This document shows, in pieces, positions 32,972-39,076 of a stretch of DNA of 64,000 nt; position 1 is the first letter of the stretch, and each line of letters opens with the position of its first letter. Source of the DNA: Candidatus Doudnabacteria bacterium (GTDB taxonomy: Bacteria > Patescibacteriota > Doudnabacteria > UBA920); assembly GCA_963837465.1 (NCBI GenBank), contig CAWINB010000004.1, positions 586,853-650,852 of the forward strand, given 5' to 3'. Under the pieces are notes generated by a model, which saw only the letters and a list, made by a program, of their open reading frames with translations, ran no database searches and was not told the DNA's origin. The translations under genes and the position numbers were made by a program.

Positions 32972-34129
32972 TTATTTTATGGCTGCGGCTACAGCGTTGG
33001 ACGCTTTTTTATCAAACAGGTCCGGCAGGATTTTTTTGGACGTGGGATTTTTTACCAGCGCGGCCAGATTTGCCGCCGCGGCGATCAGCATTTTTCGCGT
33101 GACCAGGCGGATTTTATTGTCCAGCGCCCCGCGGAAAATCCCCGGGAAAGCCAGGACGTTATTTATTTGGTTGGGGAAGTCGCTCCGGCCCGTGGCTACA
33201 ATCAAAGCTCCGGCTTTTACGGCCGTCTGGGGCATTATCTCGGGCACAGGGTTGGCCAGGGCGAAAATAATGGGTTTGGGGTTCATGGATTTTACCATAG
33301 CCGGTTTTAGCAGTCCCGCTTTGCTTACGCCGATGAAAACGTCGGCATTGTTTAAACAGCCTTCCAGTCCTCCCCGGAGGTTTTTTTGGTTGGTTTGCTT
33401 GGCCAGCCGCAGTTTTTCGGCATTTAAGCCGCTTCGTCCTCTATATATAGCGCCTTGGCTGTCCAGTATTATCAGATTTTTAAAGCCGTAAGCCAGCAAT
33501 AATCCGGCAATGCCTGTTCCGGCGGCGCCCGCGCCGTTGATAATAATTCTTGAACGTTTAGGGTGGAGAGTATGGGGTATAATAATGGCGGAACGGCATT
33601 TTAAAGCATTTACCAGCGCCGCCAAAACCACCACCGCCGTTGAATGCTGGTCATCGTGCAAAACGGGTATATCCAATTCCGCCTGGAGCCTTTTTTCAAT
33701 TTCAAAGCAGCGCGGCGCGGAAATATCTTCCAGCTGGACGGCGCCAAACACCGGCGCGATCATTTTAACCGTCCTGATGATTTCTTCGGTATCCTGCGTA
33801 TCCAAACAAACCGGAAACGCGTCTATGCCGGCAAACTTTTTCAGCAAAATCGCCTTGCCCTCCATAACCGGCAAAGCAGCCAAAGGCCCGATATTTCCCA
33901 AACCCAAAACCGCGCTGCCGTCCGTCACAACGGCCACGGTATTTTTTTTGATGGTATAGGTTGCCGCCAACCTGGCATCCCGGGCAATCAGTTTGCAAAC
34001 CTCAGCCACTCCCGGGGTATAAGCCAGGCAAAGATCGCTCGATGTCTCCAACCGAACCCCGCTCTTTATTCCCAGCTTGCCGCCGCGGGCTTTGTGCAGC
34101 AATAAAGATTTTTTAGCGATGTCGCGCAT
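32972..34129 (-). CDS. NAD(P)-dependent malic enzyme (short form)
   Basis: malic enzyme blocks YTPGVAEVC, VVTDGSAVLGLGNIG, GAGAAGTGIA. Confidence 0.85.
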   Translation of the reverse strand: MRDIAKKSLLLHKARGGKLGIKSGVRLETSSDLCLAYTPGVAEVCKLIARDARLAATYTIKKNTVAVVTDGSAVLGLGNIGPLAALPVMEGKAILLKKFAGIDAFPVCLDTQDTEEIIRTVKMIAPVFGAVQLEDISAPRCFEIEKRLQAELDIPVLHDDQHSTAVVVLAALVNALKCRSAIIIPHTLHPKRSRIIINGAGAAGTGIAGLLLAYGFKNLIILDSQGAIYRGRSGLNAEKLRLAKQTNQKNLRGGLEGCLNNADVFIGVSKAGLLKPAMVKSMNPKPIIFALANPVPEIMPQTAVKAGALIVATGRSDFPNQINNVLAFPGIFRGALDNKIRLVTRKMLIAAAANLAALVKNPTSKKILPDLFDKKASNAVAAAIK

Positions 34130-34209
34130 ATTCTGATTCTAGCAAATAAATACCTGTAGCGGAAACCTAAAAAATGCTATAATGACTCCGTAAAATTAAT
34201 TTAAGATGT

Positions 34210-34572
34210 ATGCGCGTAGTATTTAGAATTTTATTTACCGCTTTAGGCGTGCTTTTGGCCGCTTATATTGTGCCGGGAATAGCAGTGGCCGGTTTTTGGA
34301 TCGCGGTTTTGGTGGCTGTGGTTTTGGCGATTTTAAATGTTACCGTCGGGGCGTTGTTAAAAATTTTGACTTTGCCCTTAAGCATTGTAAGCTTTGGTTT
34401 TTTCTTCCTTATTATTAACGCTTTTATGTTCTGGGCGGCCAGTTTTGTAAAAGGCTTCCACGTGGCCGGGTTCTGGGCGGCGTTTTTTGGGTCGTTGATA
34501 GTTACCGTGGTAGCAATGCTGGGCAGGCGCTTTATCCGCGGATCATCGCGAAATTACCGTAGCCAATTTTAA
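34210..34572 (+). CDS. 4-TM phage-holin-family (superfamily IV / DUF360-like) membrane protein
   Basis: 120 aa, four TM helices, pattern typical of YvlD-like holin family. Confidence 0.5.
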   Translation: MRVVFRILFTALGVLLAAYIVPGIAVAGFWIAVLVAVVLAILNVTVGALLKILTLPLSIVSFGFFFLIINAFMFWAASFVKGFHVAGFWAAFFGSLIVTVVAMLGRRFIRGSSRNYRSQF

Positions 34573-34665
34573 ACTTTAGTGCTAAAATTGTGAGGAATCG
34601 CATTCTGGAGCGGAATCGGCCGCAACATTTTTGGAATTTGATATTTGTAATTTAAAATTTTCCCA

Positions 34666-35886
34666 ATGCCCTACATTAGCGAACTTTTAAACAACAGAGT
34701 TACCGACAGCTCCGATGTTACGGCGGGAAAATTACGGGATATTCTAATCAGCCCCAAGGAAGGCGCTTTTGCCCCCCTGGAGTTTTTGGTGGTTAAGGAC
34801 CTTCAAGGCCAAATCCGTTTTGTGCCTTACGAGTTTGTGGCAAATTTTAACAGCAGCCGGATTTCCCTAAAAAACCTGTTCGGTAAAATAGCGCTGGACC
34901 GCCTGCCTCCCAACCACTCCTACGTTTATTTAAAAAAAGAAATTCTTGACCGCCAGATTGTGGATGTGGCCGGCACCCGCGTAGTCAGGGTTAATGATCT
35001 GCGCATCGGCAGTTTTGAAAATAAAATGTGCGTTTTGGGCATAGACTCTTCTTTCCGCGGCATTCTGCGCCGTTTGGGTTTGGGCGATTCCTATTTCGGC
35101 TGGCTGTTCGACGTAAAGCTGATCGACTGGAGGCAGGCCAAGCTTTTGGAAGGCAGCGCTCCTTTGCGGTTAAACACGGCCGAGGAACAGCTAAGCCGCC
35201 TGCATCCAGCTGACCTGGCTAATTTGGTGGAAGATCTGGACGTAAAATACGCCAGCAGCCTGCTGGCATCTTTGGATTCCGCGGACGCGGCCAAAGTTTT
35301 GGAAGAAGTTGACCCGCGCCTGCAAACTATTCTGGTTAAATATCTGGGTCCGGAAAAGGCCGGAAGAATTTTATCGCAAATGTCCAGCGACGAATTCGTG
35401 GATTTGCTCAAAACTTTGTCCAAGCCCGAAGCCCAGGAATTTCTCTCGCAGGTCAAGGCCGGCAAAACCAAAAACCTGCAGAAACTTATCAATTATCCCG
35501 ATAATACGGCCGGCGGGCTTATGACCGTGGATTTTATTTCGGCCAGGCCCGAATGGTCCGTGGACAAAGTTATCCAAGAGATCAGGAAAGTTTCCGATGT
35601 GATGCGCTCCATAATGTACGTCTACGTTACCGCGGAGGATGGCGCGTTTTTGGGCGTGGTGTCCATAAGAAGGCTGCTTTTGGCCGACCGCGCGGCGGTT
35701 ATGGGCGATTTGGCCAAGCAGTTTCCGGATTACGCTTTTTTAAAGCCGTACCATAAAATCCAAAAAATCATTAAGCTGATGACTAAGTATAACTTATACA
35801 CGGCCGCGGTGGTGGACAAAGAAAAAAAGCTGGTCGGGGTAGTGACGATTGACGATGTGATGAGGCAGTTGTTCCCGAGCGCTTAG
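34666..35886 (+). CDS. MgtE N-terminal domain + tandem CBS domain protein (cytoplasmic Mg2+-sensing module, no TM domain)
   Basis: MgtE_N-like acidic helical region followed by two CBS motifs ending VVDKEKKLVGVVTIDDVMRQ; ORF stops before any TM segment. Confidence 0.75.
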   Translation: MPYISELLNNRVTDSSDVTAGKLRDILISPKEGAFAPLEFLVVKDLQGQIRFVPYEFVANFNSSRISLKNLFGKIALDRLPPNHSYVYLKKEILDRQIVDVAGTRVVRVNDLRIGSFENKMCVLGIDSSFRGILRRLGLGDSYFGWLFDVKLIDWRQAKLLEGSAPLRLNTAEEQLSRLHPADLANLVEDLDVKYASSLLASLDSADAAKVLEEVDPRLQTILVKYLGPEKAGRILSQMSSDEFVDLLKTLSKPEAQEFLSQVKAGKTKNLQKLINYPDNTAGGLMTVDFISARPEWSVDKVIQEIRKVSDVMRSIMYVYVTAEDGAFLGVVSIRRLLLADRAAVMGDLAKQFPDYAFLKPYHKIQKIIKLMTKYNLYTAAVVDKEKKLVGVVTIDDVMRQLFPSA

Positions 35887-35908
35887 TGCTTCGTAAACCC
35901 CAATTTCA

Positions 35909-37171
35909 ATGAAAATTTTTTGGCAAAAGCATAGAACCCAAATTCTTATTTTCCTTGCCGTCGTCGGCCCGGGACTGATTACCGCTATGGCCGATAACGA
36001 CGCCGGAGGCGTGGCCACTTACAGCGTGGCCGCCGCGCTTTACGGTATGAGTTCCCAGTATTTTGTGCTCCTGACCACCATACTTTTGGGCGTAACCCAG
36101 GAAATCGGCGCGCGGATTGCCATTGTCACTGGCAGCGGCCTTGGGGATTTAATCCGCGAGCATTACGGCGTAAAGACCGCGGTGATTTTGTTCTTTTTTT
36201 ATTTTATTGTCAATCAGGGCGTGGTTTTGCAGGATGTTACCGGGCTGAAATCATCCATCCAGCTGTTTGGCTTGCCCTGGCAGCCTATTTTAATTCTATG
36301 CTGCGCGGCTCTGGTTTTTTTGGTCATTTTTTTAAACTATAAAAGTCTCCAGCGGATTTTTTTGGCCACCATCCTGTTTTACGCCACTTATATTTTTTCC
36401 GCTTTTCTTTCGCACCCCAACTGGAAACAGGCCATAAACCAGAGTCTGTTTTTGCCGCAAAAAGCCTACCTGACGGATTTGCATTTCTGGTTTACGCTTA
36501 TAGCGGTTTTGGGAACTACGGTAACGGCCTGGGGCCAGTTTTTTGTCCACAGTTATATCGCGGACAAGGGCCTAAAAGTTTCCGAGCTCAAACAGGAGCA
36601 GGCGGAAGTTTATTTTGGTTCTTTTTTGACCAACTTTTTTTCCTGGATGATAGCCATTGCCGTAACCTACACTATTTTTATCCACGGCATCCATATAACC
36701 GACGCGCGAACCGCGGCTTTGGCCATAAAGCCTTTGGCCGGCAATTTGTCTTACGGCTTGTTCGCGGTCGGGCTTTTGGCCGCTTCGTTTTTAGGCCTAA
36801 CGATTGTGCCGCTGGCCACCGCCTATGTGTTTACGGAATTTTTCGGCTACGAAAGGACTTTAAACGCGAGTTTTTTAAAAGGCAGGGTTTTTTATTCGTT
36901 TTTTATAATCCAAATTTTAATCGGCCTTTTGGTTGCGCTGTTCCCCAAAATTAATTTGTTCGGCCTGACTTTGTACGCCGATTACCTAAACGGCGCGCTG
37001 CTGCCGGTAATTTTTTACTTCCTAATCCGCTTTTCCGAAGACAAACTGATTATGGGTGAAAAATACGTCTCAAAAGGCTTTTCCAGCTGGTTTTTAAAAC
37101 TCTCGGCCGTAGTTATAACCATAGCGGTAATTGCTACGTTTGTGGGAGGGTTTGTGTTGCATTTAAGTTAA
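35909..37171 (+). CDS. NRAMP (SLC11)-family divalent metal transporter, divergent metal-site motifs
   Basis: 11 TM; helix-1 region GPGLITAMADNDAGGVATYS in place of canonical DPGN. Confidence 0.75.
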   Translation: MKIFWQKHRTQILIFLAVVGPGLITAMADNDAGGVATYSVAAALYGMSSQYFVLLTTILLGVTQEIGARIAIVTGSGLGDLIREHYGVKTAVILFFFYFIVNQGVVLQDVTGLKSSIQLFGLPWQPILILCCAALVFLVIFLNYKSLQRIFLATILFYATYIFSAFLSHPNWKQAINQSLFLPQKAYLTDLHFWFTLIAVLGTTVTAWGQFFVHSYIADKGLKVSELKQEQAEVYFGSFLTNFFSWMIAIAVTYTIFIHGIHITDARTAALAIKPLAGNLSYGLFAVGLLAASFLGLTIVPLATAYVFTEFFGYERTLNASFLKGRVFYSFFIIQILIGLLVALFPKINLFGLTLYADYLNGALLPVIFYFLIRFSEDKLIMGEKYVSKGFSSWFLKLSAVVITIAVIATFVGGFVLHLS

Positions 37172-37243
37172 TAAGTATAGAAGTATAGAAGGATGTAGGT
37201 ATTGCCGACATATTCAAATCCTTCCATCCCTAAATCGTCCAAG

Positions 37244-39076
37244 ATGTTCCCCTACCTAAAATTCCTATCCAAATACTGGCAGGGTGAGCGCGGCAAGATC
37301 GCGCTGATTTTTATTTTTGTGATTATCAGCCAGTCGCTGTCTTTGCTGGAGCCGTTTTTCTTTGCCACAATAATCAGCAAATATTTGGGGATGCCGCAAA
37401 GCTTTGCCAATTCAGGCGTATTTTTTCATAGTTTAACCAAAATTGTTCTGGTCTGGGTGGCGGTGGCTTTTGGCGCGCGGACTTTTAAGAATTTGCAGAC
37501 TTATTACGTCAACACCGTGGCCGACAGGATTGGCATAAGGGTGCTGGAAAACGCCTACAACCACGTTTTGGCTTTGCCGATGTCTTACCACAGCCAGCAA
37601 AAGGGCGGCGAACTTTTCCGCAAACTAAGCAAAGCGCGGGACGACGTGACCACGCTGTTTATGACTTTGTTTGACAAGGTTTTCCAAAACGGCTTTTCCA
37701 TTTTGGTGGTATTCATTATCGTTTTTTGGAAAGCCTGGAGGATTGGCATTGTGCTGTTCGGTTTTATCCCGCTGTTCTTTTTTGTCAGCTGGCTGTTTAC
37801 CAGGAAGATTAAAAAGACCCAGGTGGAAATTAATAAAATCAACGAAAATCTTTTCGGCTCCAGTTTTGAGGCCATCACCCACGTGGAACTGGTTAAGGCT
37901 TTTTCTTCCGAGGAAAAAGAAAAAGAAAATTTGCAGCACGACAACCAGCTGCAGCATGCGCGCTTAAAGAAAAAAACCATGGCTTACCAGGGGCTTGGGT
38001 TCGCGCAGGGGACCGTGGTAAATTTGGCTCGCGTGGTTTTGCTGTGGTGGGGCGCGGTGCTGGCTTACCGCAACCTGCTTTCTTTTGCCAATGTTATTTT
38101 GTTTAATTTTTACTCCTTCGCGGTTTACCAGCCGCTTTACGATTTGGGGGATATTTATACCAAGTACACAGAAGGCATTGCCGCTGTTGACCGTTTGCAG
38201 AGCGTTTTGGATGAGCCGATAACCATTAAAAATTCCCCGGGCGCTGTAATGGTGGAAAAATTAAAAGGCAAAGTGGAGTTTAGGAATGTCAGTTTTGATT
38301 ACGGGGCGCTTGTGGGAGAGGCTGACAGATCTCTTGTTTTGCCTCAAGGAGAAAGGCCGCGGCAAATTTTAAACAACGTTTCCTTTATCGTCGAGCCTGG
38401 AAAAAAACTGGCGCTGGTCGGGCAAACCGGCAGCGGCAAGTCCACCATTGTTAAACTGTTGTTGAGGTTTTACGAGCCTACGGCCGGGGAAATATTGATT
38501 GATGACAGGCCGATTCACAGCTATGATATGGAAAGCCTGCGCCGACGGATTGGCCTTGTTCTGCAGGATAACGTCTTATTTAACAGCAGTATCGCGGAAA
38601 ATATCCGCTATGGCACATTTGAGGCGCCGGAAAAAATGGTGGAGGACGCGGCTCAGCGCGCCAGTTTGCAGCCGTTTTTGGCTAAGCTATCGGACGGCCT
38701 GTTTACTAAAGTCGGCGAGCGTGGTTTAATGGTTTCAGGCGGGGAGAAGCAGCGCATTGCCATTGCCCGTTCCATAATCAAGCATCCGGATATTTTAATT
38801 TTTGACGAGGCAACTTCGGCCTTAGACAGCCATACCGAAGAAGCCATCCGTAAATCCATCCTGGAGGTTTCCAAAGGCGTAACCTCCATAACCGTAGCTC
38901 ACCGTTTTGCCACAGTAGTGGACAGCGACGAAATCATCCTCCTGGTTAACGGCTCCATCTACGAACGCGGCACCCACTCCCAACTGCTTACCAAAAAAGG
39001 CGAATACGCCAGAATTTACAACCTCCAAACCCAGCGCCGCCAGGCCGCGCAGGAACTTTCCGAGGAGTTTGAGTAA
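37244..39076 (+). CDS. ABC exporter, fused permease/ATPase (MsbA-like)
   Basis: 6 TM then Walker A GQTGSGKST, signature VSGGEKQR, Walker B ILIFDEATSALD. Confidence 0.85.
   Translation: MFPYLKFLSKYWQGERGKIALIFIFVIISQSLSLLEPFFFATIISKYLGMPQSFANSGVFFHSLTKIVLVWVAVAFGARTFKNLQTYYVNTVADRIGIRVLENAYNHVLALPMSYHSQQKGGELFRKLSKARDDVTTLFMTLFDKVFQNGFSILVVFIIVFWKAWRIGIVLFGFIPLFFFVSWLFTRKIKKTQVEINKINENLFGSSFEAITHVELVKAFSSEEKEKENLQHDNQLQHARLKKKTMAYQGLGFAQGTVVNLARVVLLWWGAVLAYRNLLSFANVILFNFYSFAVYQPLYDLGDIYTKYTEGIAAVDRLQSVLDEPITIKNSPGAVMVEKLKGKVEFRNVSFDYGALVGEADRSLVLPQGERPRQILNNVSFIVEPGKKLALVGQTGSGKSTIVKLLLRFYEPTAGEILIDDRPIHSYDMESLRRRIGLVLQDNVLFNSSIAENIRYGTFEAPEKMVEDAAQRASLQPFLAKLSDGLFTKVGERGLMVSGGEKQRIAIARSIIKHPDILIFDEATSALDSHTEEAIRKSILEVSKGVTSITVAHRFATVVDSDEIILLVNGSIYERGTHSQLLTKKGEYARIYNLQTQRRQAAQELSEEFE

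Follow-up and report, generated by a model that had tools for sequence, protein, structure and literature searches.

Two adjacent genes in the window

We analyzed a 64,000-nucleotide (nt) stretch of contig CAWINB010000004.1 from Candidatus Doudnabacteria (the window), in which two adjacent genes encode a pore-less relative of the cytoplasmic part of the MgtE magnesium channel (ORF A) and a transporter of the SLC11/NRAMP fold (ORF B). We are nearly certain of both identities; the matches reported below greatly exceed chance expectation. A check of the open reading frames (ORFs) confirms that the two are co-oriented on the plus strand at the coordinates in Table 1. The ATG of ORF B lies 23 nt past the ORF A stop, and a terminator scan finds no terminator-like site in the 22-nt spacer, which is consistent with co-transcription. 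The first-pass annotation, made from the sequence alone, presented the pair as a split architecture that had not been described. This has to be withdrawn: an MgtE-like gene beside most NrmT genes was reported in 2014, together with a proposal of cytoplasmic feedback regulation (Shin et al. 2014, PMC4072509). The window locus is a member of this published gene pair from the Candidate Phyla Radiation (CPR), not a new architecture.

ORF A had been described as a 406-amino-acid (aa) protein with the N domain and CBS pair of MgtE that ends before any pore, and this description holds. Pfam assigns aa 179-280 to MgtE_N (E = 1.9e-22) and two stretches to CBS (E = 2.8e-16), and residues 20-252 of T. 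thermophilus MgtE align with ORF A at E = 8.5e-30. On the mgtE profile TIGR00400, which has 450 positions, ORF A covers 21-248; as the membrane half is missing, its 138 bits fall short of the 232.75 cut-off. The protein terminates about four residues beyond the MgtE match, at about residue 256 of the T. thermophilus protein (Tt), and therefore has neither plug helix nor pore domain. Pfam finds no PF01769 pore domain in ORF A, and no 19-residue segment has a Kyte-Doolittle value of at least 1.7, so ORF A is not an MgtE channel; nor is an MgtE transmembrane domain encoded anywhere in the window. The AlphaFold model (39 homologues; mean predicted local distance difference test score, pLDDT, 84.2) has two beta domains (aa 1-75 and 90-170), a helical N domain (aa 173-275) and a CBS pair (aa 280-402), with the CBS2 helix (aa 395-402) as its last helix and no plug helix. 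The C-terminal two-thirds superpose on every solved MgtE cytoplasmic domain in Foldseek, with target-normalised template-modelling (TM) scores of 0.82-0.89 and root-mean-square deviations of 2.0-2.5 Å over about 232 residues (2yvy, 5x9g, 8gpv, 8gps and 2oux). Five public records of pore-less partners (P0003, P0014, P0016, P0090 and P0093) carry the name 'magnesium transporter', a misleading label for a protein without a transmembrane domain and a recurrent misannotation.

Modelling shows the N-terminal 170 residues of ORF A to be a tandem PRC-barrel. The first barrel, absent from the first-pass annotation, matches PRC-barrel PF05239 at aa 3-60 with 23.5 bits against a cut-off of 21.2 in the whole-protein scan; when aa 1-83 are scanned alone, the score is 20.6 bits, slightly under the cut-off. 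The second barrel has no Pfam match in the window ORF A alone and is supported by its fold and by an Eggerthellaceae orthologue with two Pfam PRC stretches (E = 8e-12). A separate model of the N-terminal ~170 residues has a pLDDT of 80 and a predicted TM score (pTM) of 0.77. With aa 1-172 as the query, Foldseek returns CdpB1/CdpB2 (8qzo, E = 6.7e-6), MTH1859, RimM and reaction-centre H subunits. The archaeal CdpB1/CdpB2 proteins (PDB 8QZO and 8ONW), which have two barrels and align across 186-194 columns, are the best structural match (TM score 0.55-0.65), a likeness of fold only (11-16% identity) to proteins without MgtE_N or CBS. The searchable literature holds no mention of a PRC-barrel together with MgtE.

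ORF B had been read as an NRAMP homolog with MADNDAGG in place of the canonical DPGN motif and placed near the NRMT subgroup, and both statements are borne out. It is a Pfam Nramp protein (PF01566, E = 4.1e-56) whose best solved relative is EleNRMT (PDB 7QIA/7QIC/7QJI/7QJJ; PMC8806188), a transporter with 11 membrane-spanning segments that carries Mg2+ and Mn2+ uncoupled from H+ (PMC8806188). Residues 7-411 align with EleNRMT residues 31-431 (7qia) at E = 6.7e-72 and 246 bits, with 34% identity across the whole 11-helix core. The best canonical Nramp/MntH structures reach E = 6.5e-11 to 1e-3. The canonical transporters DraNramp, ScaDMT and EcoDMT share PF01566, the LeuT fold and the helix-1 Asp with ORF B but match it only at E = 1e-8 to 1e-11, with DPGN changed to DAGG, AxxM to TxxT, and the first proton-pathway His replaced; the canonical Mn2+/Fe2+ ligands are thus not retained on alignment with EleNRMT and MntH. 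ORF B also scores under all curated NCBIfam cut-offs (NF001923, 75.7 vs 430; TIGR01197, 48 vs 272.5; NF037982, 31.5 vs 50). The published NRMT signature is DxxG-TxxA/T, as opposed to DxxN-AxxM in canonical transporters (PMC8806188). Because ORF B has DxxG-TxxT, matches EleNRMT, fails the MntH/Nramp cut-offs and has Trp208 at the first proton-pathway His position, as EleNRMT does, its membership of the NRMT subgroup is supported by sequence. At the second proton-pathway His position the gapless EleNRMT alignment places V213, yet HMMER pairs the adjacent H214 with Dra H237.

The metal site shares with EleNRMT the Asp, Gly and Thr ligands and the Trp at the first proton-pathway His. ORF B differs from EleNRMT at three positions: Ala227 is Thr206, still within the DxxG-TxxA/T signature; Gln379 is Asp358; and Glu133, which belongs to the helix-3 proton-pathway residues, is Asp109. 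ORF B thus departs from the helix-10 Gln of NRMTs, and Q379A strongly compromises EleNRMT transport (PMC8806188). From the alignments, Asp358 is a clade-specific substitution and not a loss of helix 10, and it adds a second potential carboxylate to the CPR binding site.

Table 1. Positions of the gene pair, its domains and motifs, and other features of the window
Feature	Position	Strand	Basis or remarks
Sensor/partner gene ORF A	34666..35886	+	ORF, 406 aa; Pfam, PDB match to MgtE cytosolic domain, AlphaFold model
PRC-barrel 1 (aa 1 to ~78)	34666..34899	+	Pfam PF05239; beta-strand domain, pLDDT ~90
PRC-barrel-like domain 2 (aa ~88-170)	34927..35175	+	Beta domain in models; motif QIVD..GTRVVRVNDL invariant
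MgtE_N helical domain (aa 173-275)	35182..35490	+	Pfam and model helices; D242, E243, D246 (TtMgtE D91, D92, D95)
CBS pair (aa 280-402)	35503..35871	+	Pfam and model; D397 (Tt D247) kept, N376/R400 for D226/D250
Intergenic spacer	35887..35908	.	22 nt, without terminator-like site
NRMT-type SLC11/NRAMP-fold transporter gene ORF B	35909..37171	+	420 aa; Pfam Nramp, EleNRMT 7qia match
Helix-1 metal motif D31-A-G-G34 (MADNDAGG)	35999..36010	+	DxxG replaces DPGN; alignments
Helix-6 metal motif T203-T-V-T206 (GTTVTAW)	36515..36526	+	TxxT replaces AxxM; canonical GATVMPH
D358 codon	36980..36982	+	Aligned with EleNRMT Gln379, helix 10
Two sigma-70-like promoter matches	34560..34658	+	93-nt gap 5' of ORF A; weak, 9/12 each
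PF04020 (Phage_holin_4_2 family) membrane protein	34210-34572	+	93 nt 5' of the sensor gene
ABC exporter (transmembrane and nucleotide-binding domains)	37202-39076	+	Begins 30 nt past the NRMT stop
Rfam LOOT RNA motif RF03000	13097-13223	+	67 bits vs gathering threshold 46.4, full-length

Conservation of the pair and its PRC-bearing relatives

A scan restricted to a single genome for each species gave 427 relatives of ORF B, from which we took the best 80 loci; all are from CPR, as the scan patterns ADNDAGGV and T[VI]TAWGQF confined the set to that group. Other phyla were sampled through relatives of EleNRMT and a search of representative proteins, and 75 of the 80 CPR loci had room upstream for the partner to be checked. 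The metal site hardly varies in this set: D31 and G34 are invariant in 74/74 CPR loci having a residue there, and T203, T206 and W208 occur in all loci with a residue at those positions. The helix-3 position is N or D across the CPR clade. At the position of EleNRMT Gln379, partnered CPR loci have D (50), N (12) or Q (1), and the Eggerthellaceae and archaeal NRMTs have Q.

The adjacency of the two genes is conserved as well. An ORF A homologue adjoins the transporter gene in 65 of the 75 loci, full-length and upstream on the same strand in 63 and downstream in two. Spacing across the 63 is tight (median 7 nt; 18 overlap and 50 lie within 50 nt). Partner sequences fall to 25-30% identity within CPR where the transporters hold at about 50%, yet the length and position of the partner are kept. 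Only the pair stays together across CPR, the flanking genes being syntenic in close relatives only. CPR bacteria have very small genomes, and a 100%-identical match to the transporter sits on a contig of 868 kb. That these genomes mostly retain both genes, tightly linked, suggests that the partner matters.

Ten CPR loci (L018, L019, L021, L023, L028, L031, L033, L034, L040 and L073) have an NRMT without a partner within 6 kb, and P0405, a partner of about 425 aa, stands without an NRAMP gene beside it; the partnership is frequent yet not obligatory in cis. The partnerless NRMTs keep the same site motifs, and most are oriented divergently to an unrelated ~600-aa gene. In one near-identical Logan contig (L084, 3472-4646) the sensor gene is split into ORFs of 67 and 339 aa. 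Two 1-nt deletions relative to the window, within homopolymers of T and of A (window positions 34767 and 35822), account for the split; a fault of sequencing or assembly is probable, and we disfavour reading it as a pseudogene.

Adjacency extends to Eggerthellaceae and one archaeon. Upstream of Eggerthellaceae transporters that are 91% identical to crystallised EleNRMT, a 450-aa gene of the same kind (PRC, MgtE_N and CBS) ends 4 nt before the NRMT gene (L081 3644-4996; also L082 and L083). Residues 427-445 of its product form a strongly hydrophobic C-terminal helix (Kyte-Doolittle 2.59) that probably anchors the protein in the membrane and is absent from the CPR and archaeal partners. In the archaeal locus the two genes overlap (L090/L091, 3501-4829 and 4771-6102) and have TFIIB and NucS as neighbours.

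Published pairs are arranged in the same way. In the operons of Shin et al., Ca_c0685 of C. acetobutylicum and Acp2976/Acp2977 of A. capsulatum, an MgtE-cytoplasmic homologue likewise lies directly 5' of the transporter gene on the same strand, although the partner is split in two in the Ca_c0685 operon and is one intact gene in the window. The linkage was described for Clostridia, Deltaproteobacteria and Acidobacteria, with an M-box Mg2+ riboswitch frequently in control (PMC4072509); neither CPR/Patescibacteria nor archaea are named in the accessible portion of that paper. The partner is described there only as MgtE-N-terminal-like, without reference to PRC or CBS, whereas the window partner is a tandem PRC-barrel followed by MgtE_N and CBS. 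The 2022 EleNRMT paper (PMC8806188) does not discuss the partner. Nor, in the searchable literature, do later SLC11 papers or the 2025 MgtE classification preprint, and we find no later paper there on its function.

A search of 1.84 billion representative proteins with ORF A aa 1-170 returned 949 proteins at E ≤ 1e-3 and 151 at E ≤ 1e-10, and most of the 150 best-scoring PRC-module carriers measure about 400-430 aa. The first-pass annotation had asked whether MgtE-N/CBS genes occur fused to SLC11 genes or next to them in other genomes. Adjacency is what we find; there is no protein of at least 800 aa among these best 150 and no NRMT homologue longer than 558 aa is listed, a search limited to top matches that does not prove fusions absent. 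A 1117-aa 'NRMT' ORF in L076 was rejected as an artefact of a masked N run.

The same search shows that the PRC module is also borne by MgtE channels. Residues 1-170 of ORF A match three proteins of about 600 aa (P0419, P0432 and P0484) at E = 1e-11 to 1e-14, and these are complete channels with PRC, MgtE_N, CBS and the PF01769 pore. They have the domain order of ORF A but keep the pore and all the cytoplasmic Mg2+ ligands. One of them, P0419 (L086 611-2410), is followed after 16 nt by an NRMT gene (L086 2427-3389; motifs DNDAGG and GTTVTPW). P0484 and P0432 have no NRAMP neighbour, and neither does P0503, which has the cytoplasmic domains without a PF01769 match. We had considered that the PRC-barrel might be a docking adaptor specific to NRMTs, an idea weakened by the presence of the module on complete MgtE channels without an NRAMP neighbour. 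This channel subclass is unmentioned in the 2025 MgtE classification preprint. The ~600-aa PRC-MgtE-type ORFs without an NRAMP neighbour lie at L085 4001-5818, L087 108-1916 and L089 4001-5824.

Ligand sites and a possible feedback role

We mapped the cytoplasmic Mg2+ ligands of MgtE (PMC5882242) onto ORF A and counted their conservation over 100 CPR partners. ORF A and T. thermophilus MgtE (PDB 2YVY/2YVX/2ZY9/5X9G) have the same N domain and CBS fold at about 30% identity, and they share the ligands of Mg4 (D91/D247; D242/D397 in ORF A) and Mg6 (D95; D246). These are the only acidic MgtE ligands conserved in the CPR partner: D242 is kept in 88 proteins, D246 in 100 and D397 in 94, and all three are kept in every lineage sampled. 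E243, at the position of Tt D92, is conserved in 96. In MgtE, D91A/D247A and D95A abolish Mg2+-dependent closure (PMC5882242). That the ligands kept are those whose mutation prevents closure argues for competence as a sensor. Against MgtE, the window protein has lost E59 (K210), D226 (N376), D250 (R400), D214 (K364) and E216 (Q366), and the plug-helix residues E258/D259 fall on gaps in 93-100 of the 100 family members. Partners from lineages outside CPR retain more of the MgtE ligands; the Eggerthellaceae partner, unlike the CPR protein, keeps E59 and D250. Further differences from T. thermophilus MgtE are the extra N-terminal tandem PRC-barrel, the missing plug helix and PF01769 pore, Leu for Phe227, and the status of ORF A as a separate polypeptide beside a LeuT-fold carrier of unrelated fold.

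These observations suggest a mechanism in which an NRMT carrier is paired with a trans-acting Mg2+ feedback sensor derived from a PRC-MgtE channel. ORF B would be a LeuT-fold carrier with an enlarged site made entirely of hard ligands (Asp31, Gly34, Thr203 and Thr206, plus Asp358), admitting Mg2+ in largely hydrated form, and Mn2+ too; by analogy with EleNRMT, it would lack proton coupling and be powered by the membrane potential. An NRMT would be expected to carry Mg2+ and Mn2+ in this uncoupled way, but not Ca2+. ORF A, corresponding to the whole cytoplasmic part of a PRC-bearing MgtE channel minus the plug helix and pore, would be co-translated with ORF B and bind the cytoplasmic face of the transporter. 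At high cytoplasmic Mg2+, the cation would bridge the N and CBS domains through Asp242/Asp397 (Mg4) and Asp246 (Mg6), and the compacted sensor would restrain the transporter, so that an uncoupled carrier with no gate of its own would not cause overload. CorA and MgtE match transport to the Mg2+ demand of the cell through cytoplasmic gating domains (PMC4072509), and an uncoupled, potential-driven carrier would need feedback restraint as they do. Since membrane-anchored and pore-bearing partners adjoin NRMTs, action of the partner at the membrane is suggested. We put the probability of the whole explanation at about 0.5. For its parts, we lean slightly towards a direct regulatory partnership between ORF A and ORF B, and consider Mg2+ as the signal that ORF A senses slightly less likely than not. 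The analysis establishes the identities, folds and motifs, the linkage of the genes and the conservation of the ligands; from these we infer that the two proteins touch, that Mg2+ is sensed and that the effect is inhibitory.

Several points weigh against this explanation. The plug helix, which carries the gating signal in MgtE, is missing from ORF A, and the Mg5 (N376/R400), Mg7 (K210) and plug- or membrane-linked ligands are gone. The transporters work alone: C. acetobutylicum NrmT complements in B. subtilis with no need of its partner (PMC4072509), and purified EleNRMT transports in liposomes without one (PMC8806188). In the only published co-expression test, supplying the partner Acp2976 alongside Acp2977 of A. 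capsulatum left Mg2+ rescue unchanged, and Acp2977 fully rescued a Mn2+-transport mutant and Mg2+ only partly (PMC4072509). The ten partnerless CPR loci, the orphan partner P0405 and the want of any sensor-NRAMP fusion among the best matches count on the same side.

It is tempting to see the partner as an MgtE gating module freed from its own pore that now gates, in trans, a transporter of unrelated fold. A graded series fits this picture, from a full PRC-MgtE channel beside an NRMT (L086), through a PRC-N-CBS protein with a single membrane helix at its C terminus (Eggerthellaceae), to fully soluble PRC-N-CBS proteins (CPR and archaea); the Mg4/Mg6-only ligand set of CPR, with Asp at the position of Gln379, would then be a retuned version. 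We offer this tentatively and think it rather doubtful as it stands. If true, it would be a natural transplant of a regulatory domain between two structurally unrelated Mg2+ uptake systems. The tandem PRC-barrel, its presence on real MgtE channels, residues D242, D246 and D397 and the clade-specific Asp are testable handles for concrete mutants and constructs.

The unit might instead import mainly Mn2+ or another transition metal, with the partner sensing that metal, as has been suggested for the A. capsulatum pair. The Mn2+ rescue by Acp2977, which has an MgtE-like neighbour and no M-box (PMC4072509), speaks for this, as does the Mn2+ transport of EleNRMT (PMC8806188). The window locus likewise has no M-box: an Rfam scan of the whole window at gathering thresholds and of positions 33900-35000 at E up to 10 finds none, and an RF00380-type match, sought as a feature of NrmT accessory loci, does not occur here. 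The CPR site also departs from EleNRMT twice, with T206 for A227 and D358 for Q379. Yet the ligands of ORF B are all hard oxygens, without the Met that favours transition metals; EleNRMT Thr224, needed for Mg2+, is kept as T203, and TxxT belongs to the published NRMT signature (PMC8806188). The extra carboxylate of D358 would suit a hard cation better, and we regard a mainly Mn2+-importing unit as unlikely. The signal might also be an adenine nucleotide, the CBS pair binding ATP, ADP, AMP or another ligand so that uptake follows the energy state of the cell in place of free Mg2+. Binding of adenosine ligands is common among CBS pairs, and ATP binds the MgtE CBS domain and modulates Mg2+ gating (PMC5529423); of the 100 CPR partners, 62 retain Y318 and 65 retain R335, the equivalents of the ATP-site residues Tyr170 and Arg187. 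The residues that hold adenine and ribose are replaced, however: the adenine-stacking F227, whose change to Ala abolishes ATP binding by MgtE (PMC5529423), is Leu in 86 of the 100, and ORF A has Arg for D188 (ribose) and Lys for N203. With the acidic Mg4/Mg6 ligands as the best-conserved functional residues, we find an energy-state sensor quite improbable.

A role outside gating, as a chaperone, an assembly or stability factor, a metal buffer or a metallochaperone, was among the options of Shin et al., who list 'metal chaperone activity' (PMC4072509). It would agree with the unchanged Mg2+ rescue on co-expression, with the missing plug helix, and with the use of PRC-barrels as general protein-protein interaction modules in CdpB1/B2, RimM and reaction-centre H subunits. 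Free Mg2+ in cells is millimolar, as is well established (PMC4072509), which leaves little call for a chaperone. The conserved residues, moreover, are the inter-domain bridging ligands of MgtE conformational sensing, and the PRC-N-CBS module is also part of real MgtE channels, in which only a regulatory role is possible, so that a non-gating partner seems improbable to us. That the adjacency means nothing and the two genes act independently is hardly credible. The ten stand-alone CPR transporters, the orphan partners and the lack of fusions among the best 150 PRC-module carriers would allow it, but same-strand adjacency holds in 65/75 loci despite variable flanks, the genes overlap or stand very close together, partners at 25-30% identity still hold their position, and Actinomycetota, Archaea and the phyla of Shin et al. 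(PMC4072509) also have the pair. We keep a feedback sensor acting on the NRMT carrier as our working explanation.

Other features of the window

The two promoter-like sites upstream of ORF A, each a 9/12 match, show no enrichment over shuffled sequence. The gene pair is flanked by the PF04020 membrane protein gene and the ABC exporter gene. A larger conserved operon is ruled out, as the former is syntenic in 9/80 loci and the latter in about 21/80, in close relatives only. The window also contains an Rfam LOOT RNA motif (Table 1), unrelated to the ORF A/ORF B pair.

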